From: Escherichia coli
Lineage (GTDB): Bacteria > Pseudomonadota > Gammaproteobacteria > Enterobacterales > Enterobacteriaceae
Direction: 5' to 3' (one strand)
NCBI RefSeq assembly: GCF_044647545.1
Contig: NZ_CP172818.1
DNA: 64,000 nucleotides
The number at the start of each line of letters is the position of its first letter. The stretch's first letter is position 1. A model generated the notes under the pieces. The model did not search any database, was not told where the DNA came from, and saw only the letters and a program-made list of their open reading frames with translations. Below, one piece after another: positions 28,929-52,070 of the stretch. The translations under genes and the position numbers were made by a program.

Positions 28929-30599
28929 TTAAGGGATCTCAATAGCCAAATAATCGCTCGCCCGTCGCCGAACTTCATCGACGCGGGCCATATCGTTTGA
29001 CTGCAACGCCGCATCAAAATCGGTGATCACCCGGCCGATCTCTTCTCGCTCGTCACCCAGCGCCCGCGCCCACAACTCTTCCAGTTTGGCCTTAAAGGTG
29101 CGGTTGATGAGCATATCGCGCGGATAAATTTTCAATGCGGATAACCGCGTCCGACTCTCTTCAATCTGCTGTGCGCTCAATGTTACAGGACTGTGATTAA
29201 TGACTCTGGACTTAACGCTGCCGTCTTCCAGAAGCACGTCAACTTCAAGCAACCCGTTGATATCATAACTAAAGCGAATATCAATCGACTGATAAGCCCC
29301 GGTTTTCTTCAACGGCACATCGAAGGATTCCACCAGAATGTTATTTTTAACTTTGTGGTTTTCTCCCTGATAGACGTTAACCGTAATTGAATCCTGTTCC
29401 CGGTGCATGGTCGAGTAAGTTTCTACACGCGACACCGGTACAGTGGTGTTTCGTTCAATAATCGGCGAGAAAATGCCGGAAACGCCCTGGCGGTTAACTT
29501 CAACACCCAACGAGTAAGGGCAAATATCAGTGAGGATCACCTCTTCAATATCTTCACTGCGTAAGCGGCAGGCGGCCTGGATTGCTGCGCCCAGCGCGAC
29601 AATGGTGCTCGGATCGTAACTTTGATACGGTAATTTGCCAAACAGACGCACGGCGATTCGCTGCACCAGCGGCATTTGTGATGCGCCGCCAACCAGCACC
29701 AGACTGTCGATTTGACTTGGCTTCAGACGTGCATCGCGCAACGCCTGTTCAATCGGTACTCGCAAGCGATTGAGCAGCGGCAACCACAAATCTTCCAGTT
29801 CGTTCTCGTAAAATTCGCACTCACGCGTTTCTTCCTGACACTGCCAGCTAATTTGCAGCGGTAATTGATTGCTGCATTTTGCCGCTTCCACGCTGGTGTA
29901 CAGGGCTGCCAGCTCACTTTCGTTGAGCATGTTTTTAGCCACTGCGGCGCGTTTTAAAACTTCATCCACCAGCATATGAGTAAAATCTTCGCCGCCAAGA
30001 AAGTTGTCGCCAGCGGAGGCGTGAACTTCAATCACCGGCGTGGCGTATTCGAGCACCGTGACGTCAAACGTGCCGCCACCGAGATCAAAAACCAGCGAGC
30101 GGGTATTTTGTTGCGTATGCAGGCCATATGCCATCGCAGCTGCTGTGGGTTCATTAATTAAGCGTACCGCATTTAACCCGGCTAACTCCGCTGCTAAACG
30201 GGTATGCTTGCGTTGTTCATCGCTGAAATAAGCCGGAACGGAGATCACCACATCTTTAATCGGACGTTGCAGAAATTCTTCGGCATCTTCTTTTAATGAG
30301 CGTAATACCAAAGAGGACAGTTCTGGCGCGTTAAATGTGTCGCTGCCTAACCGCCAGTTGGTATTACTGCCCATTGCACGTTTAAATAACGCTGCCGTTT
30401 TATCCGGATGCGAAGTACGCCGTGATACAGCCGGTTTTCCGACTAAAATATGATTATTTTCATCCATGCTAATTATGGATGGTGTTAAATATTCACCGAA
30501 CTTATTTGGAATTAATTGCGCGGCACCGTCTTTCCAGACGGCAATTAAACTATTGGTAGTACCGAGATCGATACCAATGGCGAGTTCTGCATTATCCAT
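28929..30599 (-). CDS. hscC: Hsp70-family chaperone HscC (Hsc62), 556 aa
   Basis: Hsp70 ATPase signatures (IGIDLGTTNS, DLGGGTFD, VLVGGASQMP) and substrate-binding domain. Confidence 0.9.
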   Translation of the reverse strand: MDNAELAIGIDLGTTNSLIAVWKDGAAQLIPNKFGEYLTPSIISMDENNHILVGKPAVSRRTSHPDKTAALFKRAMGSNTNWRLGSDTFNAPELSSLVLRSLKEDAEEFLQRPIKDVVISVPAYFSDEQRKHTRLAAELAGLNAVRLINEPTAAAMAYGLHTQQNTRSLVFDLGGGTFDVTVLEYATPVIEVHASAGDNFLGGEDFTHMLVDEVLKRAAVAKNMLNESELAALYTSVEAAKCSNQLPLQISWQCQEETRECEFYENELEDLWLPLLNRLRVPIEQALRDARLKPSQIDSLVLVGGASQMPLVQRIAVRLFGKLPYQSYDPSTIVALGAAIQAACRLRSEDIEEVILTDICPYSLGVEVNRQGVSGIFSPIIERNTTVPVSRVETYSTMHREQDSITVNVYQGENHKVKNNILVESFDVPLKKTGAYQSIDIRFSYDINGLLEVDVLLEDGSVKSRVINHSPVTLSAQQIEESRTRLSALKIYPRDMLINRTFKAKLEELWARALGDEREEIGRVITDFDAALQSNDMARVDEVRRRASDYLAIEIP

Positions 30600-30682
30600 T
30601 GCATTTATATCTTGAAAGAAAAAGAGATAAACAGATTAAGACCACCCAGGTAACGCGTGGTGATCTTAATCAATGACGTGTG

Positions 30683-31618
30683 TTAAGCGTAAAATTTCAG
30701 ACGATCGGCCAGTAAATCAACAAAGCCCTGACGATCAACATCGACCATTACAGTGGCATTCGGTTTATTGCCAGTCAGATAATAATAATCAACAACCGTC
30801 ATACCCTGGGTATATTTCCCTTGTGTTTCCACGCCAACCCAGCGCTCAACAGTGGTAAACAACTCCGGTTTTAACAGCCAGGCGATGGTGCATGGGTCAT
30901 GCAGCGGTGCGCCGACAAAGCCCCATTTTTCGTCTTTATGATATTCGAGGAAGAAATCCAGCAGTTCGGCAACAATGGTTGAAACAGGGTTGCCAATCGC
31001 GCGGAAACGCTCAGTGTCTTCAACGTGGATTTGTGCTTTGTGAGTAACATCCAGACCGGCCATCACCACCGGAATTCCTGACTGGAAGACAATTTCTGCC
31101 GCTTCCGGGTCAACGTAAATATTAAATTCAGCCGCAGGCGTCCAGTTACCAAGCCCCATTGCGCCGCCCATAATCACGATACGGGCAATTTTGCTATGCA
31201 GTTCCGGGTGGCTATTGAGCAGCAAGGCAACGTTCGTTTGCGGTCCGGTAGAAACAATGGTGACAGGTTCCGCACTTTCACGCAGCGTTTTCGCCATCAG
31301 CTCCACCGCCGTACAGTTTTGCGGTGCGAACGTCGGTTCCGGTAATGCAGGGCCGTCGAGACCGCTTTCGCCGTGCACATTGTCCGCGATAATCAAATCA
31401 CGCATTAATGGTTTTACCGCACCGCTTGCTACCGGAATATCGGTGCGATTAAGCAAGGTCAGCATACGCAGAACATTGCGTAAGGTTTTTTCTGGTGTCT
31501 GGTTTCCGGCGGAAGACGTAATTGCTTTGACATCAAGCTCTGGTGAGGCGAGGGCGAGAACGATTGCGATAGCGTCATCATGACCAGGGTCGCAATCTAA
31601 CAGAATTGGCAGTGCCAT
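30683..31618 (-). CDS. rihA: Pyrimidine-specific ribonucleoside hydrolase RihA, 311 aa
   Basis: Nucleoside hydrolase N-terminal DxDxxxDD motif (DCDPGHDDA); start set at [15 protein letters not shown]. Confidence 0.9.
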
Positions 31619-31735
31619 TGTTGCTCCTTGTTGTGTGCTTCTTTGCGACAAGGGTACCGCCAGGATGTAACAGATACGAGGAGCGAAACGATAAAGCGTG
31701 AGATGGCGCGCACTTGGGTATGCGCGCCAGAGTGA

Positions 31736-32461
31736 TTAATGCAGGATTTTTGCGAGGAAGTCTTTTGCGCGGTCCGATTTCGGATCATCGAAGAAAGCGT
31801 CTTTCGGCGAGTCTTCGACAATTTTACCCTCGTCCATAAAGATCACCCGATTCGCCACTTTACGGGCAAAGCCCATTTCGTGGGTCACCACCATCATGGT
31901 CATTCCTTCGTTCGCCAGTTCCACCATCACGTCCAGCACTTCGTTGATCATCTCCGGATCCAGCGCCGATGTCGGTTCGTCGAACAGCATCGCGATAGGA
32001 TCCATGCACAATGCGCGAGCGATCGCCACACGCTGCTGCTGACCGCCGGAAAGCTGCGCCGGAAACTTATTGGCATGAGCGGAAAGCCCGACGCGCTCCA
32101 GCAATTTCAATGCTTTTTCACGAGCGGGGGCTTTATCGCGTTTAAGCACTTTCACCTGCGCCAGGGTCAGGTTTTCAATAATCGACAAATGGGGGAACAA
32201 CTCGAAATGCTGGAACACCATCCCGACGCGGGAACGCAGCTTTGCCAGATCGGTTTTCTTATCGTTAACCACGATACCATCGACGGTAATTTCACCTTGC
32301 TGCACCGGTTCGAGGCCGTTGACGGTTTTAATCAGCGTTGATTTGCCGGAACCAGACGGGCCGCAAACCACCACCACTTCGCCTTTTTTCACTTCGGTTG
32401 AGCAGTCGGTCAGCACCTGAAAGTGACCATACCATTTTGAAACATTTTTCAGGGTAATCAT
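31736..32461 (-). CDS. gltL: Glutamate/aspartate ABC transporter ATP-binding protein GltL, 241 aa
   Basis: Walker A (GPSGSGKST), ABC signature (LSGGQQQR), Walker B ([10 protein letters not shown]). Confidence 0.95.
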
Positions 32462-33135
32462 TATGCTGTCCTTCTTTTCAAGTAGCTGACCAACAACGAT
32501 GCGCTAAGGCTAATAACGAAATAAACAAATCCGGCAAACAGGATCATCTCGACCTGCGTACCATCACGCTCACCAATGGTTGAGGCGGTACGGAAGAAAT
32601 CGGCCAGAGATAACACATACACCAGTGAGGTATCCTGGAACAGTACGATGCCCTGAGTGAGCAGAAGCGGCACCATCGCGCGGAAAGCCTGCGGCAGAAT
32701 AATCAGTTTCATCGACTGCCAGTGAGTCATCCCCAACGCCAGCGCGGCGCTCGACTGACCACGGGAAATACTTTGAATACCGGCACGGATAATCTCTGAA
32801 TAGTAGGCCGCTTCAAACATCGAAAACGCCACCATCGCCGAGATTAAACGGATATCATTTTTTGGCGATAATCCCAGCACGTTTTGCAGAAAACCCGGCA
32901 CAATCAGGTAAAACCACAGCAAAACCATAACTAAAGGAATCGAGCGGAATACGTTAACGTAGGCTTTGGCAAACCACGCTACGGGCGCAAAGCTGGACAA
33001 GCGCATCACCGCCAGCATGGTGCCCCACAAAATACCAATCACGACTGCCGTGACGGTGATTTTCAGGGTGATCACCAGCCCATCCAGCAGATACGGCAGG
33101 GAAGGAACAATGGAACTCCAGTCAAACTCGTACAT
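32461..33135 (-). CDS. gltK: Glutamate/aspartate ABC transporter permease GltK, 224 aa
   Basis: Polytopic permease; start overlaps the gltJ stop and the stop overlaps the gltL start. Confidence 0.9.
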
Positions 33136-33875
33136 TATTTGCCCCCCATGTTGCCGGGCAGGCGAACTTTACGTTCAACCAGCGTCATCACCAGCATGAT
33201 AAAAGCGTTAATCAACACATACGCAAGCGTAATGGCGGTAAACGACTCCCAGGCGTGAGCGGAGTAATCGAGTAATTTACCCGCCTGCGCCGCCATATCT
33301 ACCAGACCGATAGTCGAGGCGATGGCGGAGTTTTTCACCAGGTTCATCATCTCGGAGGTCATCGGCGGGACGATAACGCGATAAGCGTTAGGCAACAGTA
33401 CGTAGCGGTAAGCCTGCGGTAGCGTCAGCCCCATCGCCAGCGCGGCATTCTTCTGCCCACGCGGCAGCGACTGAATAGCGGCGCGTACCTGTTCGCAAAC
33501 ACGGGCGGCGGTAAACAGCCCCAGGCAAAGCATGGATGAAAGGAAAAACTGAATATTGGGATCCAGCTCGGCCTTAAACCACATGCCGATTTTCTCCGGC
33601 AGCAGCTCCGGGATCACCAGATACCAGGTAAAGAATTGCACAATCAACGGCACGTTGCGGAACAGTTCGACATACAACGTACCCAGACCGGAGAGAAAAC
33701 GGTTTGGAACGGTACGTAAAATGCCGAAAAATGAACCGACGAGGAAAGCGATAATCCAGGCGCAGATCGACAAAGCGATCGTCACCTGAAAGCCACTCCA
33801 GATCCAACCAAGATAGGTGGTGTTGCCGAACGGGGCTTGTTGTAAAAAAATACCCCAGTTCCAGTCTATAGACAT
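33135..33875 (-). CDS. gltJ: Glutamate/aspartate ABC transporter permease GltJ, 246 aa
   Basis: Polytopic permease recognised as GltJ. Confidence 0.9.
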
Positions 33876-33879
33876 AAAT

Positions 33880-34043
33880 CTACTCCAGAAAAAAGAGGGT
33901 AGCAGCGTTAACTGCTACCCTCGAAGATTGTTACCCAGCGTATTGCGGTTTTCAGGCCCGATGGGGAACGACCACCAGGCGTATAGTCTGTCCGTGCTAC
34001 GTAACAATCGAGAGGGCTGGAATTTCCGCCCCTGGTTCTTGTA
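33880..34043 (-). ncRNA. sroC: Candidate sRNA SroC in the gltI-gltJ intergenic region
   Basis: Position matches the known SroC locus; on the minus strand a strong hairpin (gagggtagcag-ttaac-gctgctaccctc) plus a T-run ends just upstream of the gltJ RBS; SroC sequence itself not verified from memory. Confidence 0.5.
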
Positions 34044-34044
34044 A

Positions 34045-34953
34045 TTAGTTCAGTGCCTTGTCATTCGGTTCTTTGAACAGTGCTTTCATTTCGTCTGACA
34101 GTTCGAAATTCATGTTCAGGTTTTTCGGCGGAATTGGGTTTTTGAACCACTTATCAAACCATTTTTCCGCTTCACCGGAGGTCTGCACCTGAGCGATAGT
34201 GTCATCCATCAGCTTTTTGAACTGCGGATCGTCTTTACGCAACATGCAACCGTAGGCTTCCTGAGACTGCGGCTTGCCGACGATTTCCCAGTTGTCTGGT
34301 TTCTTCGCTTTCGCACGTTCACCGGCCAGCAGGGCATCATCCATCATAAAGGCAACGGCACGACCGCTTTCCAGGGTGCGGAAAGAGTCACCGTGATCTT
34401 TGGCGCTGATGATGCGCATGTTCATTTTTTGCTCTTCATTCAGTTTGTTGAGCAAAACTTCAGAGGTGGTGCCGGAAGTGACTACGACGGCTTTGTCTTT
34501 CAGATCGGCAAAATCTTTAATATCGCCGCCTTTTTTTGTCAGCAGGCGCGTACCGACCACGAAAATAGTGTCGGAGAAAGCCGCCTGTTTTTGGCGTTCG
34601 ACGTTGTTGGTGGTAGAACCGCATTCAAAATCGAAAGTGCCGTTTTGCAGCAGTGGAATACGGTTTTGTGAGGTGATCGGAATCAATTTCACCTGTAAGT
34701 CTGGTTTGTTGAGTTTCTTTTTCACTGCTTCAACAATGGCGTTGGAGTAATCCTGCGAGTAGCCCACCACTTTTTGCTGATTGTCGTAATAAGAGAAAGG
34801 TACTGAAGATTCACGGTGACCGACGACAATCACGCCGTTTTTGGCGATTTTGTCCAGCGTGCTGCCTGCTGCCGGGGCGGCGTCATCTGCCTGTGCCAGT
34901 CCTGCGGAAAGCGCCAGGGCCAGGATTGCTGTGGCAGGTTTACGTAATTGCAT
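34045..34953 (-). CDS. gltI: Glutamate/aspartate periplasmic binding protein GltI, about 302 aa
   Basis: Signal peptide plus solute-binding protein fold; start set at second ATG (MQLRKPATA). Confidence 0.9.
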   Translation of the reverse strand: MQLRKPATAILALALSAGLAQADDAAPAAGSTLDKIAKNGVIVVGHRESSVPFSYYDNQQKVVGYSQDYSNAIVEAVKKKLNKPDLQVKLIPITSQNRIPLLQNGTFDFECGSTTNNVERQKQAAFSDTIFVVGTRLLTKKGGDIKDFADLKDKAVVVTSGTTSEVLLNKLNEEQKMNMRIISAKDHGDSFRTLESGRAVAFMMDDALLAGERAKAKKPDNWEIVGKPQSQEAYGCMLRKDDPQFKKLMDDTIAQVQTSGEAEKWFDKWFKNPIPPKNLNMNFELSDEMKALFKEPNDKALN

Positions 34954-35050
34954 ATCCAACTCCTTTATCTTCTGCGTTAAAAACGCATGGATACCCGTTG
35001 TGAGTGTTTGTGTTGTTATCTCTGCGACTTTTTGTGCGGTTGTGTTTTGG

Positions 35051-35082
<32 letters not shown>

Positions 35083-35689
35083 TTAGGTAACATTTAGTTT
35101 GGATAAATGTAAAGGTATTGCTGTTTTATTGTTTGTTTTTGCGAGATGCGCCGCACCATTCCGAAGCAAAATTCTTAAACTGCACCTTTTTGGTGCTACC
35201 GCTGATTTGTGGTGGTGCAACCCGGTTGCGTCGCGGTTGATTTCATTGCTTACACAGTAAATAAAGCAACTTACATGCCAAAAAATACTTAGGGGTGCAT
35301 TAATTACGATTGTAATTTCAGTTTGAAAAAGTCATATTTCGGACAGTGTTAACTTTTCGGTGTGGGAATTTTGCCGGGATGATAACTACACACGGGAAAA
35401 TGTTTTTTACTAGTCTTTTCAAGGAAAAATCACTTTATGTCTGCATCTTCGGTTAAGCCGTTAAATGTTCAATTACCCGCAATAACCCTGATCCTTTTTG
35501 CGCTCTGTGTTGGGATATTTTGTTACCTCGCACAATGGATGAGTTACAAAAAAGTCAATAAATCCGCACTCATCCATCTCGGCGCTAACTTTCTCTCTCT
35601 CACGTTGTCGGGTAAACCCTGGCGTTTATTTAGCAGTGTCTTTTTACAGTATTTTTTCTCTTTTATAGATATATATTTTTGCACTCTGG

Positions 35690-36790
35690 TTAGGGGGGAG
35701 GGGGGGAAGGGAAAATGGGGAAAAGGGGATCCCTATTGTTTGCCTTTTTCTCTCGGGTTTGTGTGGTGAGCACATCGTCTTGTGTTATGCGCGAAAAAAA
35801 AGAGAAAAGATAGATAGGTGGGGGGGCCGGGGGAAAAAAGGAAAAAAAGGGGGGGCGGTAAGAAAAAAACACTTCTTTAGGGGGGAGAACACAATAAAAA
35901 ACAGCGGCGAGGTTTTTTCCTTTTTGGTGGGGTGGCGCTAACGTTGTGTTGCGGCCCGGGAAAAAGAGAAAAAAAAAGCCTCTTCAATGGCGGGGCCGTG
36001 GGTGGGGGGGGGGGTTGGGTGGGGGGGGGCCCGGTTAGGTGGGACAAAACCGTTTCGTAAGGAAGGGCGAGTTTTTTGTGGCTCTTCTTTTCTCCGGCGG
36101 GGTATTTCGGGTGTGCAGCAGCAGAATGATGAAAAATTTTTTTAAAATAGGGGAAAACCGCGTGAAAAGTTTTTTTCCCAGGAGAATAAACAAAAGGAGC
36201 GAAAAAAAAAACAACAATTTAGGGGGGAGGGCAAAGCCCCCACCGAAACATTATCCGCTCCGGTAAGTCGTGAGGAGGCCAGTGGTGATTTACTCGCTGA
36301 GATTGCCGATAACCATGATATGGCGATCAATCGGGATGGTAATACGTTATATGCCGCAAATGAAAACACGAACAGTATTTTTTTTTTCGACCTCGGACAA
36401 AAGAAAATCTCCCATACTTTTATACCGCCCATAGCAAAAAAAAAAAAACACAAAAATTGTGGGGTCTGTAAAAATAAGGGGGTAAGATGGCGGTGGTTAA
36501 GCCCGAAAAAAAGGTTTTTTTATCCACTTTTATTTAAAATGAATGCGTGATCGTTAATAAAGGGGCGGAGGGGGGGGATAATTCAGTCAATAACCACCTG
36601 CACACATCCTGACAGTTTTATCCTCTCGTGGAATGAAAAAAAAGCTGGGTGAATAATGCAACCAATAAAATGTATTTATTCATCTATTGATTTATTAACT
36701 TATAAGGAAGGAGATGCCGCCCGAAAAAAAAAAAACGGGGGGGGGAGGAGGGGAAAAAGACGCCCGTGTGATATTACTCTCCGCGGTAAA
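35690..36790. other. Low-complexity purine-rich block with long poly-G and poly-A runs; no coherent coding frame; probable artefact or degraded DNA
   Basis: Runs such as gggggggaggggggg, gtggggggggggggttgggtggggggggg, aaaaaaaaaaaac and gggggggggagg; every overlapping ORF translates to low-complexity G/K/F/P-rich peptides. Confidence 0.8.
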
Positions 36791-37423
36791 AAAACATTGT
36801 TGATACCGCTTGGATTGAGAGAAAGCATATTCGAATCAATAACATCACGAATCATAAAGTAGAATTTCCCACATGTGATGGGTGTGGTGTCGTTGTTGTG
36901 ATGGGAGTATGATAACGAAAAAATAATAGTATTTTTATCGATAATATCGAGGGTATACGAGTAAAAGTTTAAGGATAGAAAAAAAAGAAGCAAAGATCAA
37001 AAGGGAGTGGTGAAACCGTTATCTCTATTAGGTTGAGAGGCAGGAGTGTAAATAGTTGTGTTTTGGTCTGGATGGCAAAGGGATTGTAACCTTTTTTAAT
37101 ATAAAGCCGGGGAAAAGATTGGCGGTTTTTCTCCCCATAACTTTTATTCTTCTCTGTTTTTCAGCGGATGGTAGAAAGATATTTGTTATGGCGAAGAACG
37201 GGTTAATCCAAATGGACAGGACGCGCTCGCTTGATCCGCAGGCAATTATTCGGCATCCCCAATATGGTGATGTGGCTTGTATCCCTGAACCGTAAGAAAA
37301 AGGGGCATGATAATCACGCCCGAAGTAATGAGAAAGTACGTTTTGTTGATACCGGATGCGGTGTTAACGGTTTATTTAGCCTGCAAAAATGATGCAATTT
37401 TGCAGGCCAGCGCATCATTTACA

Positions 37424-38965
37424 TCAACGTTTACGTCGCTGACGCAGACTCATCAACACAGCGGCAAAACCAAACAGCGCCGTAAGCACCCACAGCGGCC
37501 AGTTGCCGGTACGTGCGTACGGTGTGAGTCCGGTAGTCGGCGTCACGTTAGTGGTCAACACTTCGCGGGTGAACTGCGGGATCATTGCCTGAATCTCACC
37601 CTGCGGGCCAATCACCGCCGTAATACCGTTGTTGGTGCTACGCAGCAATGGGCGCGCCAGCTCCAACGCACGCATTCGCGCCATCTGGAAGTGCTGCCAT
37701 GGACCAATAGACTTACCAAACCACGCATCGTTGGAGATAGTCAGCAGATAGTCGGTATCCGGGCGGAAGTTATCGCGCACTTGCTCGCCGAGAATGATCT
37801 CGTAGCAAATAGCCGCAGTAAGCTCAATACCATTTACCGACAGCGGCGGCTGGATATATGGCCCACGGCTGAACGACGACATCGGCAGATCAAAGAACGG
37901 TGCTAACGGACGCAGAATCGACTCCAGCGGGACAAACTCGCCAAACGGCACCAGATGGTTTTTGTTATAGCGATCGGCTGATTCATAGCTGTACGGTGCG
38001 CCTTTACCCAGTGTGATGATGGTGTTGTAGGTATCGTAGCGGTTCTGCTTATTGAGACGCGCGTCGACAATCCCGGTGACCAGCGAGCTACCTTTATCGC
38101 GCAACTCACCGTCCAGAGCTTTGAGGAACGGTTGCTGATTAATTTCCAGATCGGTTATCGCCGACTCCGGCCAGATAATCAACGATGATTTGCCCATCAG
38201 CGGTGCCGTTGCGTTGTAGTAAATCTTCAGCGTATTAAGAAGCTGGCCTTCGTCCCATTTCAGCGATTGCGGAATATCGCCCTGAACCATCGAAACCTGA
38301 ATGGTTTTCTCCGGTTGCGGGGTAAACCACTGGATGTAACGCAGCGGGAAGGGTAGGGCAAACAGCACGACGGCCACCACCAGCGGACGCCAGTTGCGTT
38401 TGACTAACGCCAGTGCCAGCAGGCCGCTAACCATCATAAGCAGGAAGTTAATGGCTTCCACGCCCATTAGCGGTGCCAGCCCTTTTAACGGGCCATCAAT
38501 CTGGCTATAGCCGAACTGTAACCACGGGAAGCCAGTCAGCACCCAACCGCGCAGAAACTCGGTCACTTGCCAGAGAGCAGGAGCGGCAATCGCCACGCGC
38601 AGCCAGGTGGTTTTCGGCCACAGACGCGACAGCACGCCAGCAAACAGTCCGGTATACAGCGACAAATACGCCGCCAGCAGTACCACCAGGAAGATGTTAA
38701 CCGGGCCAGGCATTCCGCCAAAGGTCGCGATGCTGACATAGACCCAGTTAATACCGCTGCCAAAGAGACCAAATCCCCAGCAAAAGCCAATAGCGGCAGA
38801 CTGGAGTGGACGGCGGTTAAAGGTCAGCGCCTGAAGCCCCATCAGCGAAATAATCGCCGCAGGCCAGACATCGTAAGGAGAGAAGGCCAGCGTTCCGCAG
38901 GCACCGAATAATAACGCCAGCAGCAGGCGAATGCGCTGGCGTTCAATTAATGAGGCAAAAGCCAT
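37424..38965 (-). CDS. lnt: Apolipoprotein N-acyltransferase Lnt (CutE), about 512 aa
   Basis: N-terminal multi-TM region and C-terminal nitrilase-like domain; recognised as Lnt. Confidence 0.9.
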
Positions 38966-38989
38966 GTAGTTATCTATCCAGTTTCGGTT

Positions 38990-39868
38990 TTATTCATCCA
39001 GCTTCGGCTGGGGTGAGTCATCCGGGATTTTGACATGAACCTGAATAATACGCCGACTGTCGGCCATCGCCACTTTGAACTGGTAACCGTCGATGTCGAT
39101 GGTTTCGCCACGCGCCGGAAGATGCCCAAATGCCTGCATCACCAGACCACCGATAGTGTCAACCTCTTCATCGCTAAAGTGGGTACCGAACGCTTCGTTG
39201 AAGTCTTCAATGGAAGCCAGTGCGCGCACGGTCCAGGTATGACGACTCAACTGACGGAAGTCGATATCATCTTCTTCGTCATACTCGTCTTCAATCTCAC
39301 CAACAATCAGTTCCAGGATGTCTTCAATGGTCACCAGACCGGAAACCCCACCGAATTCGTCAATGACGATCGCCATGTGGTAACGCTGAGAGCGAAACTC
39401 TTTCAGCATCCGGTCTACGCGCTTACTTTCAGGAACGACAACCGCCTGACGTAACACTTTGTCCATGCTGAAGGCTTCAGCATCGCTGCGCATAAACGGC
39501 AGCAAGTCTTTCGCCATCAGAATCCCTTCAATGTGATCTTTGTCTTCGCTAATCACCGGGAAACGTGAGTGGGCGGACTCGATGATGACATCAAGGCATT
39601 CGTCCAGTGTCTGGTTGCGTTTCAGGGTAATCATCTGGGAGCGGGGGATCATGATGTCGCGGACGCGTTGGTCTGCGATGTCCATCACCCCTTCGAGCAT
39701 ATCGCGCGTATCTTCGTCGATAAGGTCGTTCTGCCCGGAATCACGGATCAGCGCCAGCAGTTCGTCACGGTTTTTCGGTTCACCGTGGAAAAGTTGGCTG
39801 AGTAACAGGGAGAAAAATCCCTTCTTGTTGCTTATCGTGTCACTACTGTGTGAATTGTCGTCGCTCAT
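38990..39868 (-). CDS. corC: Mg/Co efflux-associated CBS-domain protein CorC (YbeX), 292 aa
   Basis: CBS pair plus CorC/HlyC C-terminal domain; recognised as YbeX. Confidence 0.9.
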
Positions 39869-39957
39869 GGCGTCGTATGGGTTCTCATGTTAGTTAATCA
39901 AAACGCCGTCGTTAATCACCAACGGCGGGGACGTCTGCCAGTCAAATGCCTGGCAAA

Positions 39958-40425
39958 TTATTCTTTCTCGGCAATGTACGGATCCTCATAGCCCAGAGCA
40001 AGCATAATCTCTGTTTCGAGGGCTTCCATTTCTTCTGCTTCGTCATCTTCGATGTGATCGTAACCTAACAAATGCAGACTGCCGTGCACCACCATATGCG
40101 CCCAGTGCGCCTCCAGTGGTTTGCCTTGCTCCTGAGCTTCCTTCTCAACCACCTGACGGCAGATAACCAGATCGCCCAGTAGCGACATTTCCATGCCAGG
40201 CGGCACTTCAAACGGGAAGGAGAGCACGTTGGTCGGCTTATCCTTACCGCGATAGGTCAGATTCAGACTGTGGCTTTCGGCGGTATCGACCACGCGAATA
40301 GTCACTTCCGACTCTTCCTGAAACTGCGGGATCACCGCATTCAGCCATGTCTGAAACTGGCTCTCTTCCGGTAACCCGGAATTATCTTCACATGCCAGTT
40401 GTAAATCGAGGATCACCTGACTCAT
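39958..40425 (-). CDS. ybeY: Endoribonuclease YbeY, 155 aa
   Basis: HxxxH...H zinc motif ([11 protein letters not shown]). Confidence 0.9.
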
Positions 40426-41501
40426 TTTTGTTCCTGTTCTTCGCGCTTGCGTTCTGCTGCCAGCGCCGCTTTACGTTTTTGTTCGGCTTCTTCCCAGGCT
40501 TCATAAGCGTTAACGATACGCGCCACCACCGGGTGACGAACCACGTCTTCGCTGTGGAAGAAGTTAAAGCTGATCTCTTCAACATCGGCCAGCACTTCGA
40601 TGGCGTGACGCAAGCCTGACTTGGTATTACGCGGCAGGTCGATCTGTGTGACGTCGCCGGTGATAACCGCTTTTGAGTTAAAACCGATACGGGTCAGGAA
40701 CATCTTCATCTGTTCGATGGTGGTGTTCTGGCTCTCATCGAGAATGATAAACGCGTCGTTCAGCGTACGACCACGCATATAGGCCAGCGGCGCGACTTCA
40801 ATAACGTTGCGCTCAATCAGTTTCTCGACTTTCTCAAAGCCCAGCATTTCAAACAGCGCGTCGTACAGTGGGCGCAAATACGGGTCTACTTTCTGGCTTA
40901 AATCGCCAGGCAGGAAGCCCAGTTTCTCACCGGCTTCTACCGCCGGACGAGTCAGCAGAATACGGCGAATTTCCTGACGCTCCAGGGCATCAACTGCCGC
41001 AGCCACTGCCAGGTAGGTTTTACCCGTACCCGCCGGGCCAACGCCGAAGGTGATGTCATGGTCGAGAATATTGGCGATGTACTGCGCCTGGTTTGGCGTG
41101 CGCGGCTTGATTACGCCGCGTTTGGTTTTGATATTGACCGCTTTGCCGTACTCCGGCACGCTCTCCGCGCTTTGCTCCAGTACCCGCGCTTCTTTAATCG
41201 CAAGGTGGATCTGTTCCGGTTCGATATCCTGAATCTGACCACGCATCGGGGCAGTATCGACATACAGGCTACGCAGAATGTCTGCCGCAGCGGTGACGCA
41301 AATCGGACGGCCGGTCAGTTTAAAGTGGTTATCGCGGCGATTGATCTCGATGCCGAGACGGCGTTCGAGCTGCTTGATGTTGTCATCAAACGGGCCGCAC
41401 AGGCTCAACAGACGCGCATTGTCTGCTGGCTCCAGGGTGATTTCGCGAGTGTCTATGTTCAAACCGTTCCTCTTATCTGTATGCCGCCGGAAGCTGAACA
41501 T
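40422..41501 (-). CDS. ybeZ: PhoH-like ATPase YbeZ, up to 359 aa (annotated start may be shorter)
   Basis: Walker A (GPAGTGKT); stop overlaps the ybeY start by 4 nt. Confidence 0.85.
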
Positions 41502-41614
41502 TCACCGGCCTATAAGGAAATTATTCACGCCACAGGAAAAAGGCGCAAGCATTGCGATAAAGATGGGGATAAAGAGAGAAAAAACAAGGCCCACCGGAAC
41601 GGCGGGCCTGAGAA

Positions 41615-43039
41615 TTACGGCTGATAATAACCCACGCCAAGGTCGTTTTCTTTGCGGGTACGGGCAATCACCGATTCCGGCGTTTCTGCCACGCGCAGAC
41701 CCATTTCATCTTCAGTACGCACCACTTTACCGCGCAGAGAGTTCGGGTAGACGTCGGTAATTTCTACATCGACGAATTTACCGATCATATCTGGCGTGCC
41801 TTCAAAGTTGACCACGCGGTTATTTTCAGTGCGACCGGAAAGCTCCATGATGCTCTTACGCGATGTACCTTCTACCAGAATACGCTGGGTGGTGCCGAGC
41901 ATCCGGCGGCTCCATGCCATTGCTTGCTGATTAATACGTTCTTGCAGAATATACAGACGCTGCTTCTTCTCTTCTTCCGGAACATCATCAACCATATCGG
42001 CGGCTGGTGTACCTGGACGTGCAGAGAAGATAAAGCTGTAGCTCATGTCGAAATTGACGTCGGCAATCAGCTTCATCGTTTTCTCGAAGTCTTCGGTGGT
42101 TTCGCCAGGGAAGCCAACGATGAAGTCAGAACTGATCTGAATATCCGGACGCGCCGCACGCAGTTTACGGATGATCGCTTTGTACTCCAGCGCTGTATGG
42201 GTACGTCCCATCAGGTTCAGAATGCGATCGGAACCGCTCTGTACCGGCAGATGCAGGAAGCTCACCAGCTCCGGCGTGTCGCGATACACTTCGATGATAT
42301 CGTCGGTGAATTCGATCGGATGGCTGGTGGTAAAGCGAATACGATCGATCCCGTCGATCGCCGCAACCAGACGCAGCAGATCGGCAAACGATCCGGTGGT
42401 GCCGTCGTAGTTTTCACCACGCCAGGCGTTCACGTTCTGACCGAGCAGGTTGACTTCACGCACGCCCTGAGCCGCAAGCTGGGCAATTTCAAACAGAATA
42501 TCGTCGGACGGACGGCTTACCTCTTCACCACGGGTGTAAGGCACCACGCAGTAGGTGCAATATTTATTGCAGCCTTCCATGATGGAGACAAACGCGGTCG
42601 GCCCTTCGGCGCGCGGTTCTGGCAGACGGTCAAACTTCTCGATTTCCGGGAAGCTGATATCTACAACCGGGCTGCGGTCGCCGCGCACGGAGTTGATCAT
42701 CTCCGGCAGACGGTGCAGCGTTTGCGGCCCAAAAATAATATCGACATAGTGGGCGCGCTGGCGAATGTGCTCGCCTTCTTGCGATGCCACGCAGCCGCCG
42801 ACGCCGATTATCAGGTCTGGATTCTTCTCTTTTAACAGTTTCCAGCGACCCAACTGATGGAAGACTTTTTCCTGAGCCTTCTCGCGGATTGAGCAGGTGT
42901 TCAGCAGCAGCACATCCGCTTCTTCCGCCACGTCGGTCAGTTGATAGCCGTGGGTGGCATCCAGCAGATCGGCCATCTTCGATGAATCGTACTCGTTCAT
43001 CTGACAGCCCCAGGTTTTAATATGGAGTTTTTTGGTCAT
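41615..43039 (-). CDS. miaB: tRNA-2-methylthio-N6-isopentenyladenosine synthase MiaB, 474 aa
   Basis: Radical-SAM CxxxCxxC (CNKYCTYC), N-terminal MTTase cysteines, TRAM C-terminus. Confidence 0.95.
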
Positions 43040-43184
43040 CGACTTGCTCTTGCGAAATAGTAGCCAGGAATGCAGGGCGCATAGTGTAATGCTTTGCTGC
43101 CGTTGTGACCAGTATGAGCGTTATCAGCCCTTGGGGGTAAAAATCCTGTAAACTTAAAGCATATTGCTAACAGGATGATTGACC

Positions 43185-44360
43185 ATGACAAATCAACCAA
43201 CGGAAATTGCCATTGTCGGCGGAGGAATGGTCGGCGGCGCACTGGCGCTGGGGCTGGCACAGCACGGATTTGCGGTAACGGTGATCGAGCACGCAGAACC
43301 TGCACCGTTTGTCGCTGACAGCCAGCCTGACGTGCGGATCTCGGCGATTAGTGCGGCTTCGGTATCATTGCTTAAAGGTTTAGGCATCTGGGACGCGGTA
43401 CAGGCTATGCGTTGCCATCCTTACCGCAGACTGGAAACGTGGGAGTGGGAAACGGCGCATGTGGTGTTTGACGCCGCTGAACTTAAGCTACCGTTGCTTG
43501 GCTACATGGTGGAAAACACTGTCCTGCAACAGGCGCTGTGGCAGGCGCTGGAAGCGCATCCGAAAGTAACGTTACGTGTGCCAGGCTCGCTGATTGCATT
43601 ACATCGAGATAATGATCTTCAGGAGCTGGAGCTGAAAGGCGGTGAAGTGATCCAGGCGAAGCTGGTGATTGGCGCTGACGGTGCAAATTCGCAGGTGCGG
43701 CAAATGGCGGGAATTGGCGTTCATGCCTGGCAGTATGCGCAGTCGTGTATGTTGATTAGCGTACAGTGCGAGAATGATCCCGGCGACAGCACCTGGCAGC
43801 AGTTTACTCCGGACGGGCCGCGTGCGTTTTTGCCGCTGTTTGATAACTGGGCGTCGCTGGTGTGGTATGACTCTCCGGCGCGTATTCGCCAGTTGCAGAA
43901 TATGAATATGGCGCAGCTCCAGGCGGAAATCGCGAAGCATTTCCCGTCGCGTCTGGGTTACGTGACACCGCTTGCCGCTGGTGCGTTTCCGCTGACACGT
44001 CGCCATGCGTTGCAGTATGTGCAACCAGGGCTTACGCTGGTGGGCGATGCCGCGCACACCATTCATCCGTTGGCGGGGCAGGGGGTTAACCTCGGTTATC
44101 GCGATGTTGATGCGCTGATTGACGTTCTGGTGAATGCCCGCAGCTACGGTGAAGCGTGGGCCAGTTATCCTGTCCTCAAGCGTTACCAGATGCGGCGTAT
44201 GGCGGATAACTTCATTATGCAAAGCGGTATGGATTTGTTTTATGCCGGATTCAGCAATAATCTGCCACCACTGCGTTTTATGCGTAATCTCGGATTAATG
44301 GCGGCGGAGCGTGCTGGCGTGTTGAAACGTCAGGCGCTGAAATATGCGTTAGGGTTGTAG
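43185..44360 (+). CDS. ubiF: 2-octaprenyl-3-methyl-6-methoxy-1,4-benzoquinol hydroxylase UbiF, about 391 aa
   Basis: FAD-binding GxGxxG (IVGGGMVGG); start set two codons into the ORF. Confidence 0.9.
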   Translation: MTNQPTEIAIVGGGMVGGALALGLAQHGFAVTVIEHAEPAPFVADSQPDVRISAISAASVSLLKGLGIWDAVQAMRCHPYRRLETWEWETAHVVFDAAELKLPLLGYMVENTVLQQALWQALEAHPKVTLRVPGSLIALHRDNDLQELELKGGEVIQAKLVIGADGANSQVRQMAGIGVHAWQYAQSCMLISVQCENDPGDSTWQQFTPDGPRAFLPLFDNWASLVWYDSPARIRQLQNMNMAQLQAEIAKHFPSRLGYVTPLAAGAFPLTRRHALQYVQPGLTLVGDAAHTIHPLAGQGVNLGYRDVDALIDVLVNARSYGEAWASYPVLKRYQMRRMADNFIMQSGMDLFYAGFSNNLPPLRFMRNLGLMAAERAGVLKRQALKYALGL

Positions 44361-44364
44361 CCTT

Positions 44365-44460
44365 ACAACATTGCCGGATGCATGCCAACCGTAGGTCGGA
44401 TAAGACGCGTCAGCGTCGCATCCGACTTTGAAGGATAAGACGTGTCAACATCGCATTCGA
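44365..44460. repeat. Cluster of REP-like palindromic units downstream of ubiF
   Basis: gccggatgcatgcc...taggtcggataagacgcgtcagcgtcgcatccgac...ggataagacgtgtcaacatcgcattcgac. Confidence 0.6.
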
Positions 44461-44479
44461 CATTGAATATACGCAGAAA

Positions 44480-44510
44480 AGCAAAAAGCTCGCCGAAGCG
44501 AGCTTTTTTA
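44480..44510 (-). terminator. Intrinsic terminator of the metT tRNA operon
   Basis: agctcgc-ttcg-gcgagct hairpin followed by a T-run on the minus strand, just distal to the last tRNA. Confidence 0.7.
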
Positions 44511-44513
44511 ATG

Positions 44514-44588
44514 TGGCTGGGGTACGAGGATTCGAACCTCGGAATGCCGGAATCAGAATCCGGTGCCTTACCGCTTGGCGATACCCCA
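44514..44588 (-). tRNA. glnX: tRNA-Gln (anticodon CUG)
   Basis: Reverse complement is a 75-nt tRNA-Gln (UGGGGUAUCGCC...GGAUUCUGAUUCC...CCAGCCA). Confidence 0.9.
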
Positions 44589-44625
44589 ACTGGGTGCACT
44601 TACAAGGTAAGCGTCTTGAATAAAT

Positions 44626-44700
44626 TGGCTGGGGTACGAGGATTCGAACCTCGGAATGCCGGAATCAGAATCCGGTGCCTTACCGCTTGGCGATACCCCA
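44626..44700 (-). tRNA. glnV: tRNA-Gln (anticodon CUG)
   Basis: Identical copy of the preceding tRNA-Gln(CUG). Confidence 0.9.
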
Positions 44701-44748
44701 ACAAATTGGTTTTTGAATTTGCCGAACTTATTCGACACATTCAGAATT

Positions 44749-44825
44749 TGGTGGCTACGACGGGATTCGAACCTGTGACCCCATCATTATGAGTGATGTG
44801 CTCTAACCAACTGAGCTACGTAGCC
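44749..44825 (-). tRNA. metU: tRNA-Met elongator (anticodon CAU)
   Basis: Reverse complement is a 77-nt elongator tRNA-Met (GGCUACGUAGCUCAGUUGG...CUCAUAA...CCA). Confidence 0.9.
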
Positions 44826-44840
44826 AGATTGTTTCTTCGA

Positions 44841-44915
44841 TGGCTGGGGTACCTGGATTCGAACCAGGGAATGCCGGTATCAAAAACCGGTGCCTTACCG
44901 CTTGGCGATACCCCA
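44841..44915 (-). tRNA. glnW: tRNA-Gln (anticodon UUG)
   Basis: tRNA-Gln variant with anticodon loop GGUUUUUGAUACC and acceptor/T-arm differences from the CUG copies. Confidence 0.9.
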
Positions 44916-44949
44916 ATAACCGGGCGGTGAACCGCTTACTCGAAGAAGA

Positions 44950-45024
44950 TGGCTGGGGTACCTGGATTCGAACCAGGGAATGCCGGTATCAAAAACCGGT
45001 GCCTTACCGCTTGGCGATACCCCA
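44950..45024 (-). tRNA. glnU: tRNA-Gln (anticodon UUG)
   Basis: Identical copy of the preceding tRNA-Gln(UUG). Confidence 0.9.
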
Positions 45025-45047
45025 TCCGTACAACGCTTTCTGGTGAA

Positions 45048-45132
45048 TGGTGCGGGAGGCGAGACTTGAACTCGCACACCTTGCGGCGCCAGAACCTAAA
45101 TCTGGTGCGTCTACCAATTTCGCCACTCCCGC
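45048..45132 (-). tRNA. leuW: tRNA-Leu (long variable arm; leuW-type)
   Basis: 85-nt class II tRNA (GCGGGAGUGGCGAAAUUGGUAGACGCACCAGAUUUAGGUUCUGGCGCCGCAAGGUGUGCGAGUUCAAGUCUCGCCUCCCGCACCA). Confidence 0.9.
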
Positions 45133-45140
45133 AAAAAAGA

Positions 45141-45217
45141 TGGTGGCTACGACGGGATTCGAACCTGTGACCCCATCATTATGAGTGATGTGCTCTAACC
45201 AACTGAGCTACGTAGCC
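45141..45217 (-). tRNA. metT: tRNA-Met elongator (anticodon CAU)
   Basis: Identical to the metU copy; first gene of the operon. Confidence 0.9.
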
Positions 45218-45244
45218 ATCTTTTTTTTCGCGATACCTTATCGG

Positions 45245-45295
45245 CGTTGCGGGGCGCATTATGCGTATAGAGCCTTGCAGCGTCAACCTCTTTTT
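45245..45295 (-). promoter_or_regulatory. Putative sigma70 promoter of the metT tRNA operon with GC-rich discriminator
   Basis: On the minus strand: TTGACG ... CATAAT-like -10 ... GCGCCCCGC discriminator about 25-70 nt upstream of metT. Confidence 0.5.
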
Positions 45296-45586
45296 CAAGG
45301 AAAATTGCTCGAAAGTGACTGTTTGGTTAGGTTGCGAACAGCGTGGCGCTATATTCGTCAATTATTGTTTACTTTGTGTTTTTTCCCCACCCTACAGCCA
45401 TTCTTTTGTCATACAGGATGAAATTCGGAATTCAACAATAGTGGTGGGAAATTAATCTATGAAATACTCCCTTCAACAACACAGGATTACCTCATTTCTA
45501 CCACACATTTATTAGGAATACTATCTTTTATACATTATTACTTAAACCTCCAACCAAACCGAAAAAAATATTTTTTAAAATTAAAA

Positions 45587-45645
<59 letters not shown>

Positions 45646-45744
45646 GAAGCGTGGCCTACAGTGATGAATTGTCAAACAGTGATGTGGCAAACCCGGAACA
45701 TTTCCTTACTGCATATCAGAATCAACAAGCACCTCAATAACTGA

Positions 45745-45781
45745 AACAGCCCCGGATTTTACCGGGGCTGTTTCGCATTTC
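45745..45781 (-). terminator. Probable intrinsic terminator downstream of asnB
   Basis: cagccccgg-atttta-ccggggctg hairpin adjacent to the asnB stop; weak T-run. Confidence 0.5.
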
Positions 45782-47446
45782 TTACTTGTACGCCGACTGG
45801 TGAACACCAACCGCACGACCAGATGGATCGTCCATTTTTTTGAACGCTTCATCCCATTCGATCGCTTTAGCGGAAGAACACGCGACGGAAGGACCGCCCG
45901 GCACGCACTCAGCGGCGCTCGGAAGCGGGAACAGTTCTTCAAAGATCTCGCGGTACAGATACGCTTCTTTGGACGTCGGCGTGTTGTACGGGAAGCGGAA
46001 GCGGGCAGTTTCCAGCTGTTGATCAGAAACCTGCTGCGCCGCCACTTCTTTCAGGGTGTCGATCCAACTGTAACCGACGCCATCGGAGAACTGCTCTTTC
46101 TGCCGCCAGGCCACGCTTGCGGGCAGATACGCTTCAAAACATTCACGCAGGATGTGTTTTTCCATTTTGCCGTTACCGCACATTTTATCCTGTGGGTTAA
46201 TGCGCATCGCCACGTCGAGGAATTTTTTGTCGAGGAACGGAACGCGTGCTTCCACGCCCCAGGCGGACATCGCTTTGTTGGCACGCGCGCAGTCATACAT
46301 ATGCAGGGCCAGCAGTTTACGCACCGTCTCTTCATGCAGTTCTTTGGCATTCGGCGCTTTGTGGAAGTATAGATAACCGCCAAACACTTCATCAGATCCT
46401 TCACCGGACAGCACCATTTTAATGCCCATCGCCTTGATCTTACGCGACATTAAATACATCGGTGTTGAAGCGCGAATAGTGGTCACATCATAGGTTTCGA
46501 TGTGGTAAATCACGTCGCGGATGGCGTCCAGACCTTCCTGTACAGTGAAGTGAATTTCATGATGCACAGTGCCCAGATGGTTTGCCACTTCCTGGGCTGC
46601 CTTCAGATCCGGTGAACCCGGCAGACCTACAGCAAAGGAGTGCAGCTGCGGCCACCAGGCTTCAGAGCGTTCCTGATCTTCCACGCGACGGGCGGCGTAT
46701 TTCTTGGTGATAGCGGAAATGATTGAGGAATCCAGGCCACCAGATAGCAGCACACCGTAAGGCACATCAGACATCAGATGGCTTTTAACGGAATCTTCCA
46801 GTGCCTGACGCAGCTCGTTTTTGTCGGTCACGTTATCTTTCACCGCATCGTAGTCGAACCAGTCGCGATGATAATAAGAACGGATTTCGCCGTCCTGACT
46901 CCACAAATAGCTCCCCGCCGGAAACTCTTTAATCGTGCGGCAAACTGGCACGAGGGCTTTCATTTCTGAGGCCACATACAGCTGACCGTGTTCGTCATAG
47001 CCCATATACAGTGGGATGATCCCCAGATGGTCGCGACCAATCAGATATGCATCTTTTTCGCTGTCGTACAGGGCAAAGGCAAACATGCCCTGCAAGTCGT
47101 CGAGAAATTCCGGCCCTTTTTCCTGATACAGCGCGAGGATCACTTCACAGTCAGACCCGGTCTGGAATTGGTAACGATCGCCATATTCAGCGCGCAATGC
47201 CTGGTGGTTGTAGATTTCACCGTTTACTGCCAGCACATGAGTTTTTTGTTGGTTGTAGAGAGGTTGCGCCCCCGCGTTAACGTCAACAATTGACAGACGT
47301 TCGTGGGCGAGAATGGCGTTATCGCTGGCATAAATACCGGACCAGTCCGGGCCACGATGACGCATCAGGCGTGACAGCTCGAGTGCTTTCTTACGCAGCT
47401 CAACTGCGTCTGTTTTGATATCGAATACGCCAAAAATTGAACACAT
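45782..47446 (-). CDS. asnB: Asparagine synthetase B (glutamine-hydrolysing) AsnB, 554 aa
   Basis: N-terminal MCSIFGVFD nucleophile cysteine, PP-loop SGGLDSS; ORF track starts 21 codons upstream of the likely true start. Confidence 0.95.
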   Translation of the reverse strand: MCSIFGVFDIKTDAVELRKKALELSRLMRHRGPDWSGIYASDNAILAHERLSIVDVNAGAQPLYNQQKTHVLAVNGEIYNHQALRAEYGDRYQFQTGSDCEVILALYQEKGPEFLDDLQGMFAFALYDSEKDAYLIGRDHLGIIPLYMGYDEHGQLYVASEMKALVPVCRTIKEFPAGSYLWSQDGEIRSYYHRDWFDYDAVKDNVTDKNELRQALEDSVKSHLMSDVPYGVLLSGGLDSSIISAITKKYAARRVEDQERSEAWWPQLHSFAVGLPGSPDLKAAQEVANHLGTVHHEIHFTVQEGLDAIRDVIYHIETYDVTTIRASTPMYLMSRKIKAMGIKMVLSGEGSDEVFGGYLYFHKAPNAKELHEETVRKLLALHMYDCARANKAMSAWGVEARVPFLDKKFLDVAMRINPQDKMCGNGKMEKHILRECFEAYLPASVAWRQKEQFSDGVGYSWIDTLKEVAAQQVSDQQLETARFRFPYNTPTSKEAYLYREIFEELFPLPSAAECVPGGPSVACSSAKAIEWDEAFKKMDDPSGRAVGVHQSAYK

Positions 47447-47659
47447 AACCTTCTCCGTTAACCTGGTATTTGTTGCTTGTTGTGTTTGCTTGTTTAAAAA
47501 ATGCCGCAAAGCAGCACGGTGCGCAAGCGATTTGGCGGTGGAAAAATAAAAAACGTAATGGCGATTGCTGATTTGTGAAAAAGGATAGGGTGTGGTGGCG
47601 TATTTATTGATGGATCGATAATTTTTGACGGGTTTTATTGAATAGGATGATTTTAATGA

Positions 47660-47698
47660 TGGCTAAAATAAGAAACCACGCCCTGAGGCGTGGTTGCT
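47660..47698 (-). terminator. Intrinsic terminator after umpH
   Basis: aaccacgccctgaggcgtggtt hairpin followed on the minus strand by a T-rich run. Confidence 0.65.
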
Positions 47699-47700
47699 AT

Positions 47701-48453
47701 TCAGATAACGTCGATTTCAGCGACCGACGGGTAAATCCAGCTTGGGCGGAACGGCATACTGTCGATATCGTCGAGCGATGAAACACCAGAAAGCACCAGA
47801 ATCGTCTCCAGACCCGCCTGGAAGCCCGCCAGAATATCGGTACGCAGGTTATCGCCGACAATCACCGTTTCTTCCGAATGCGCCTGCATTTTGTTTAATG
47901 CCGCGCGGATGATCCACGGACTCGGTTTACCAACATAGAACGGTTTACGCCCGGAGATTTTTTCGATCCCTGCACACAACGCGCCACAGGCCGGATAAAA
48001 ACCGCGCCCGTGGGTGTCCGGGTTGGTGGCGATAAAGCGTGCACCGTTAGCGACGAAATAGGCTGCTTTATGCATCATGTCCCAGTTGTAGGAACGCGTT
48101 TCACCAACAATCACGAAATCAGGGTTCACATCGGTAATAGTGAAACCGGCTTTGTACAGTTCATGAATCAGTGCGCCTTCGCCCACCACATACGCTTTCT
48201 TGCCTTCCTGGCGACGCAGGAAATCGGCGGTCGCCATTGCAGAGGTATAAAACACGCTGTCAGGTACATCGACACCGGCAGTGGCAAAGCGGTTCGCCAG
48301 ATCTTGCCCGGTCTGCGAAGGATAGTTGGTCAGCAACACCAGCGGCAGGCCTTTATCCATAATCCCGTGCAAAAATTCCGCTGCACCCGGTACGGCGACG
48401 TTATCGTGCATCAGCACGCCGTCGATATCGCAAATTACATTTTTAATGGTCAT
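47701..48453 (-). CDS. umpH: UMP phosphatase UmpH (NagD), 250 aa HAD-family
   Basis: HAD motif I DIDGVL near the N-terminus; last gene of the nag cluster. Confidence 0.9.
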   Translation of the reverse strand: MTIKNVICDIDGVLMHDNVAVPGAAEFLHGIMDKGLPLVLLTNYPSQTGQDLANRFATAGVDVPDSVFYTSAMATADFLRRQEGKKAYVVGEGALIHELYKAGFTITDVNPDFVIVGETRSYNWDMMHKAAYFVANGARFIATNPDTHGRGFYPACGALCAGIEKISGRKPFYVGKPSPWIIRAALNKMQAHSEETVIVGDNLRTDILAGFQAGLETILVLSGVSSLDDIDSMPFRPSWIYPSVAEIDVI

Positions 48454-48500
48454 GGACTACCCAGAATATTGACAACAATAAGCGCCACTATAAAAGCACA

Positions 48501-49721: not shown

Positions 49722-49729
49722 ACTTTCTC

Positions 49730-51738
<2,009 letters not shown>

Positions 51739-52070
51739 TATTCACCTCAATAAGTAAAATGTAAGCCGTTGGCGGATTAGGCATCTTTAAGCGTAACCTG
51801 GATTTGCGCAGACAGGCGTCAATCCGACCTGATTTTTTGAATGATAAAATAAGTTTTCTGGTTTAGCCAGTAAAAGGGAGTGATGATAACGATATTTGGT
51901 GACAAAACTCACAAAAGACACGCGTTTAATTTGCGATACGAATTAAATTTTCACACACTCTGTAGCAGATGATCTAACAATCTGATTACAGAACATCGGC
52001 AGTACAATTTGCAGCAAAATAAAAATACGGCTTTAAATGAGCCAAATAGGGTTCTCGTAGGGGGAATAAG
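51739..52070. promoter_or_regulatory. Divergent nagB/nagE control region (NagC operators and CRP site expected)
   Basis: 332-bp AT-rich intergenic region between divergent nagB and nagE; individual operators not mapped by eye. Confidence 0.55.

Follow-up and report, generated by a model that had tools for sequence, protein, structure and literature searches.

The open reading frame (ORF) that begins at position 35437 of the window, the whole 64,000-nt stretch of E. coli DNA analysed here, is the authentic 5' end of a rhomboid membrane protease gene, namely the E. coli orthologue of rhom7, which is known from E. coli and Shigella alike. From the comparison of sequences we infer, with high confidence, that this known gene has been corrupted in the window by a non-biological process. 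A sequence-only reading of the same DNA had described the ORF as a putative membrane protein with a rhomboid-like segment, whose frame runs into low complexity after about 70 codons.

The identification of the ORF is based on a DNA-level match to annotated genomes; a Pfam scan of the fragment is uninformative. A megablast search with positions 34900-37500 against 5,426 complete E. coli genomes matched the gltI / rhomboid protease / lnt locus in many of them, and the annotation found there between gltI and lnt is "rhomboid family intramembrane serine protease". The allele of FDAARGOS_497 (NZ_CP033850.1) is 1878 nt long and encodes a protein of 625 aa (WP_022645354.1), which scores 100.3 bits on the Pfam family Rhomboid (PF01694; gathering cut-off 22.6) over residues 59-201 and displays the motifs W62-R63, H71-x4-H76-x3-N80, G-A-S133-G and H187-I-G-G. 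With a score above the gathering cut-off and all of these motifs present, the undamaged allele qualifies as a rhomboid protease, and the assignment to the rhomboid family that had been proposed from the WR motif (W62-R63) was correct. Residues ~290-570 of the intact protein match several beta-propeller families in Pfam. The closest solved structure is that of Haemophilus influenzae GlpG (2nr9, E = 1e-9) for residues 13-204 and a YVTN beta-propeller (1l0q, E = 1e-24) for the C-terminal domain, and a crude Kyte-Doolittle scan of the undamaged allele yields hydrophobic stretches at residues 6-37, 72-96, 98-120, 125-146 and 210-235. The intact enzyme would comprise a six-helix catalytic core (with Ser133 and His187), a seventh helix and a C-terminal YVTN/WD40-like beta-propeller. 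An intact ORF of 625 codons was present in all three natural alleles examined for it (FDAARGOS_497, RM6927 and Nissle), each of which keeps H71, H76, N80, S133 and H187.

The characterised relative of this protein is Rhom7 of Shigella sonnei (SSON_0610; Liu et al. 2020, EMBO J 39:e102922, PMC7232013). Both proteins are 625 aa long, colinear and ~91.5% identical (559 of 611 aligned residues, using the machine-read sequence from Fig EV1 of PMC7232013), and they have in common the N-terminus MSASSVKPLNVQLPAITLILFALC..., the numbering of Ser133 and His187, a predicted seventh transmembrane (TM) helix and the C-terminal domain. At the level of sequence, this full-length colinearity, high identity and identical numbering of catalytic residues place the undamaged allele in the Rhom7 orthologue group. 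For S. sonnei Rhom7, Ser133 and His187 are catalytic, the exchanges S133A and H187A abolish activity, and Phobius predicts seven TM domains (PMC7232013). The same study reports that Rhom7 is closer to Providencia AarA (30% identity) and that it cleaves HybA and FdnH, orphan subunits of respiratory complexes, an activity demonstrated for the S. sonnei protein only (PMC7232013). Compared with Rhom7, the window copy is recognisable over approximately the first 70 codons only; the His/Asn motif of TM2, Ser133, His187 and the beta-propeller lack a readable frame.

GlpG of E. coli and H. influenzae are the prototype rhomboid proteases. Both (2ic8 and 2nr9, respectively) share the Pfam family PF01694 with the intact Rhom7-type protein, which matches 2ic8 with E = 6e-4, compared with the 1e-9 obtained for 2nr9. 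GlpG and Rhom7 have in common the WR motif (loop L1), H-x4-H-x3-N (TM2), GxSG (TM4) and a histidine in TM6, with residue equivalences that we assume from the GlpG structure. Unlike GlpG, Rhom7 has no N-terminal cytoplasmic domain, and it adds the predicted seventh TM helix and the beta-propeller of ~350 aa.

We then considered the ORF itself, which comprises 110 codons on the + strand (35437-35769; ATG at 35437-35439, stop at 35767-35769) and is preceded by AAGGA at 35421-35425, 11 nt before the ATG. According to the ORF listing and the translation, the sequence-only reading had given the start codon, the upstream AAGGA and the 110-aa product exactly. In the DNA alignment to FDAARGOS_497, the ATG at 35437 coincides with the annotated start of WP_022645354.1. 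That reading had also proposed a homology search with the first 70 residues. In BLASTP, the ORF matches the intact 625-aa E. coli protein with E = 3e-45; residues 1-37 are identical, as are 62 of the first 70, so the N-terminus is not a chance ORF and the opening codons do encode the credible protein for which they had been taken. Codons 1-70 represent the true N-terminus of rhom7, i.e. TM1 and the L1 loop with W62-R63. In Pfam, no family was found for the 110-aa ORF at E ≤ 0.01, nor for its first 71 aa at E ≤ 10; the undamaged N-terminal 71 aa likewise have no match, since a fragment of this size is too short to carry the Rhomboid domain.

Between codons 38 and 71, the ORF differs from the intact protein by E38K, E39K, D41N, Q42K, V52F, A53L, E60K and H71Q. 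Codons 38-42 hold four of these changes, each due to an A that replaced a G or C in an A-rich context, which indicates the nature of the process, namely that bases are overwritten by their neighbours. The segment G-K-P-W62-R63-L-F with the WR motif of loop L1 is found in the ORF; the H-x4-H-x3-N motif of TM2 is lost in the window copy, in which FLHSSFSHLLMN has become FLQYFFSFIDIY. The frame closes with the stop at codon 111, before Ser133 and His187 are reached, and codons 71-110 are artefactual low-complexity junk. In this state the DNA could encode no more than a 110-aa product, TM1 plus the L1 loop, without catalytic Ser/His or a Pfam domain; this product is a corruption artefact and not an evolved small protein. 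The upstream DNA had been called promoter-like, which was not borne out by a simple consensus scan (a weak test): on the + strand before the ATG, neither the window nor the intact locus showed a sigma-70-like site.

The gene order in the window is cit, dpiBA, ... gltLKJI, the region in question, lnt-corC-ybeYZ-miaB ... nag, fur, pgm. The left neighbour gltI, encoding the binding protein of the glutamate/aspartate ABC transporter (34045-34953, - strand), is undamaged and 100% identical to FDAARGOS_497, and the right neighbour lnt, encoding apolipoprotein N-acyltransferase (37424-38965, - strand), is undamaged as well. Between gltI and gltJ lies an intact sroC sRNA (33887-34049, - strand; Rfam RF00369, 172.6 bits). 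The intact homologue and genomic context that the sequence-only reading suggested looking for are thus the 625-aa gene between gltI and lnt, and the native protein does not continue with low-complexity sequence. Of the 5,426 complete E. coli genomes, 3,231 (~60%) carry at least 80% of the 2.5-kb locus at 94-100% identity, with Nissle, BL21 and KO11 among them; it is absent from K-12 and O157:H7. Natural alleles of the locus differ by up to ~6%. At the rhom7 site, K-12 MG1655 carries IS5D and a deletion, which explains why the ORF had not been recognised as a K-12 gene, a judgement that was right.

The damage in the window is extensive and local. Compared with FDAARGOS_497, positions 1-34175 contain only two SNPs and positions 45651-64000 a single 1-nt indel, so that flanks of 34 kb and 18 kb, i.e. 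52 kb, are 99.99% identical. The two SNPs, at 2048 (G for A) and 11419 (C for A), are probably ordinary strain SNPs. A first damaged patch lies in the spacer between gltI and rhom7 (35020-35078), where an A-rich insert with a run of 28 A (35051-35078) comes after a small number of indels and substitutions and the alignment contains a 32-column insertion. The upstream region of rhom7 (35079-35436, + strand) is perfect up to 35367 and has five substitutions within 35368-35434, two of which fall between AAGGA and the ATG. The equivalent of the rhom7 gene spans 35437-37295 on the + strand, 1859 nt compared with 1878 nt in the intact allele, and is 73-74% identical overall to the FDAARGOS_497 allele, with the alignment in register throughout; from its start, sound sequence extends over ~200 nt only.

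Calculated in 100-nt bins against FDAARGOS_497, identity is 1.00 up to 35299 (except for the patch at 35020-35078) and falls to 0.98, 0.97, 0.93, 0.82, 0.66 and 0.58 in the successive bins of 35300-35899. A scrambled core of G/A-rich low complexity with poly-G and poly-A runs occupies 35640-37160 (+ strand), at 47-87% identity per 100 nt except for a near-intact island at 36240-36400 (+ strand, ~96% identity; 0.96 in the bin 36300-36399). The island covers the linker and the first beta-propeller blade, and encodes ...SAPVSRE.ASGDLLAEIAD..HDMAINRDGNTLYAA.ENTNSI.... As a widespread gene remnant it was not found: the genomes sampled have the locus almost complete or else no more than its flanks. 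Identity is 0.47 at 37000-37099 and has returned to 0.99 at 37200-37299, and the 3' end of rhom7 (37160-37295, + strand), with the last ~45 codons and the TAA stop, is intact. Residual damage between rhom7 and lnt (37296-37423) consists of a 1-nt deletion of A, a scrambled 8-nt patch at 37322-37326 and two substitutions. A terminator-like hairpin of lnt in this interval (37303-37321, - strand) has 8 pairs compared with 9 in the intact sequence, and its T tract is one base shorter. Read straight from the ATG at 35437, the frame contains 34 stops; with tblastn, the protein can be recovered only in fragments that are spread over three frames, at 40-55% identity, and the damaged block holds no ORF longer than 110 aa. 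The in-register alignment, the identities of 47-66% in the worst 100-nt bins and the 34 in-frame stops bear out the earlier proposal that a real gene is corrupted partway through.

The 444 substitutions are spread over codon positions 1/2/3 as 157/144/143, compared with 29/16/66 for the natural variation between two alleles. Among the substituted bases, 71% are the same as a base next to them in the true sequence, compared with 47% expected for random replacement. Within 35640-37160, we counted 32 homopolymers of at least 6 nt (3 in the intact allele) and 12 of at least 8 nt (none in the intact allele), and the C content is 14.5% compared with 21.6%, in agreement with the low-complexity decay that had been noticed after codon ~70. 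No single mutational signature fits, because all twelve types of substitution occur together with indels; directed mutagenesis by a diversity-generating retroelement (DGR) or a deaminase was ruled out on the same grounds. At allele-informative sites, the window follows FDAARGOS_497 by 76:16 against RM6927 and by 49:14 against Nissle, so the damage sits on the strain's own allele and not on an imported one. A flat spread over codon positions cannot by itself tell an artefact from the decay of a pseudogene; what sets the artefact apart from decay is the combination of 99.99% identical flanks, the bias towards copying neighbours and the collapse into homopolymers.

A second scrambled block is located at 45468-45650, where 429 nt of the true sequence, comprising most of a hypothetical gene (WP_000943487.1), have collapsed to 183 nt. 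Its G content drops from 29% to 4%, its first ~100 nt correspond to the true sequence with the G's deleted, and it ends in a run of 49 A. The block sits between the metT tRNA cluster and asnB, in a segment absent from K-12. Seven intact tRNA genes (44517-45217, - strand; Gln, Gln, Met, Gln, Gln, Leu and Met in the reference annotation) form a cluster that ends ~250 nt before this block. A scan of 30000-48000 at Rfam gathering thresholds found only sroC and the seven tRNAs, and no Rfam family in the damaged blocks.

The placement of the two blocks is tied to K-12. When the window is compared with K-12 MG1655, the only segments of more than 100 nt without homology are 35045-37429 and 45469-45651. 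The poly-A run at 35051-35078 lies ~8 nt upstream of the TTAG target site at which K-12 carries IS5D. Just past IS5D, K-12 has a counterpart of 35079-~35290, and the window is perfect over 35079-35367; the damage begins at 35368 and ends just before 37430, where homology to K-12 resumes. Even the lone 1-nt indel (at 47669) falls within a 30-nt stretch (47644-47673) that does not align to K-12. With the exception of the two SNPs, all differences from FDAARGOS_497 are found in segments without a colinear counterpart in K-12 MG1655. This confinement suggests a reconstruction step that depended on a reference or a model, rather than biology or random read error.

The proposed course of events is that a non-biological process corrupted the strain's own rhom7 allele, with errors building up from ~35368; most affected bases would have been replaced by their neighbours, giving the homopolymer-rich G/A text, until perfect sequence returned at ~37160. 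On the evidence of the sequence alone, possible sources are a consensus that was reference-guided or gap-filled and drew on poor reads, or a reconstruction done in silico or by a model. Within the high probability that we assign to a non-biological origin, an in-silico cause and a cause in the wet lab or the assembly have about equal shares. No single, simple error model obviously accounts for both blocks: block 1 is dominated by substitutions and nearly keeps its length, whereas block 2 is dominated by deletions with dropout of G. The near-perfect island at 36240-36400 is a further point against this reading.

To an in-silico artefact, produced by a sequence model or by deliberate degradation, we give about an even chance. 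Here, well-represented sequence would be rendered faithfully and sequence absent from the reference genomes would drift into homopolymers, which accords with the confinement to non-K-12 segments, and also with the build-up of errors, the collapse into poly-A and poly-G and the abrupt resynchronisation at three sites. The damaged text is, moreover, absent from every public collection searched, as is the ORF, while the intact protein is very common. In the complete E. coli genomes, the best full-length match to the damaged text reaches 76%; an exact damaged 45-mer is missing from GTDB representative genomes and JGI metagenomes; and an exact look-up has no record of the 110-aa product as a called gene, whereas the intact 625-aa protein, as a positive control, has index entries in 7,085 blocks of that collection. 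Two observations are difficult to reconcile with this origin. The flanks keep the strain's own SNPs (97.8% identity to K-12 but 99.99% to FDAARGOS_497), which means that the process must have had access to the true sequence, and the block keeps the register of the true gene for 1.8 kb, which would not be expected of free generation.

A wet-lab or assembly artefact is a serious contender, which we rate a little short of an even chance. It would involve a K-12-guided build in which non-K-12 segments were filled by single low-quality reads or by a poor long-read consensus decaying along the read. The restriction of the damage to segments without a K-12 counterpart is explained equally by such a build; in addition, identity decays from left to right twice (from 35300 to 36000 and from 36400 to 37100), the neighbour-copy errors fit phasing or broad-peak miscalls, and the G dropout of block 2 resembles the loss of one signal channel. 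As in other low-quality or misassembled genome regions, whether the genome was deposited or reconstructed, an error-dense, homopolymer-rich stretch is embedded in otherwise perfect sequence, and its errors carry no selective signature. The window differs from the usual cases in its long poly-A runs and in a placement tied exactly to non-K-12 segments. The 28- and 49-nt poly-A runs and the abrupt return to perfect sequence are atypical of read ends, and none of the public assemblies searched contains the damaged text.

Biological origins fare far worse. That rhom7 was inactivated as a natural pseudogene and then decayed or hypermutated in vivo is highly improbable, even if the gene is dispensable (~40% of complete E. 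coli genomes are without it, and K-12 has the deletion) and the missing codon-position bias would fit relaxed selection. A divergence of 26-50% amid flanks of 99.99% identity would require a local mutation rate thousands of times higher; the twelve substitution types and indels show neither a deaminase-like nor a DGR-like signature; and neighbour-copy bias, poly-A and poly-G runs and a dropout of G in a second, unrelated block are no known outcomes of mutation. Less probable still is that the scrambled text is real DNA, whose accessory segments (rhom7 and the 429 nt at 45468) were hypermutated and turned into homopolymers by some in-vivo process that left the core untouched.

Least probable of all, to the point of being negligible, is that recombination brought in a divergent allele, or that the ORF encodes a small membrane protein or a rhomboid-like pseudoprotease (His to Gln) that is real and has evolved. 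The start codon of the ORF, its AAGGA at 11 nt from the ATG, its TM helix and its WR motif can be cited in favour. Against it, the informative sites follow the FDAARGOS_497 allele and no foreign one, no ORF longer than 110 aa survives, the 110-aa product is unrecorded and without a Pfam match, its last 40 codons are low-complexity junk, and each of the four natural alleles examined has kept H71. The FDAARGOS_497 pattern at these sites ruled out a recombinant foreign allele as a candidate. An iRhom/Derlin-like pseudoprotease was likewise rejected, as the active-site residues are conserved in natural alleles: the segment FLHSS.SHLLMN is kept in all four, and Gln71 is confined to the damaged copy in the window. 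The WR-type segment with His replaced by Gln, as described in the sequence-only reading, can indeed be seen in the ORF, but the replacement is no natural feature; H71Q is a corrupting substitution.

For the interpretation of this DNA, a corrupted copy of rhom7 means that neither the 110-aa "membrane protein" nor the low-complexity stretch of 1.5 kb behind it should be given an annotation or a biological interpretation, and that other findings within 35020-37420 and 45468-45650 should likewise be read as damage. The gene itself is already characterised in Shigella, where it serves the quality control of orphan respiratory-complex subunits, and it is common in E. coli; to find it at the gltI-lnt locus is nothing unusual in strains other than K-12 and O157.
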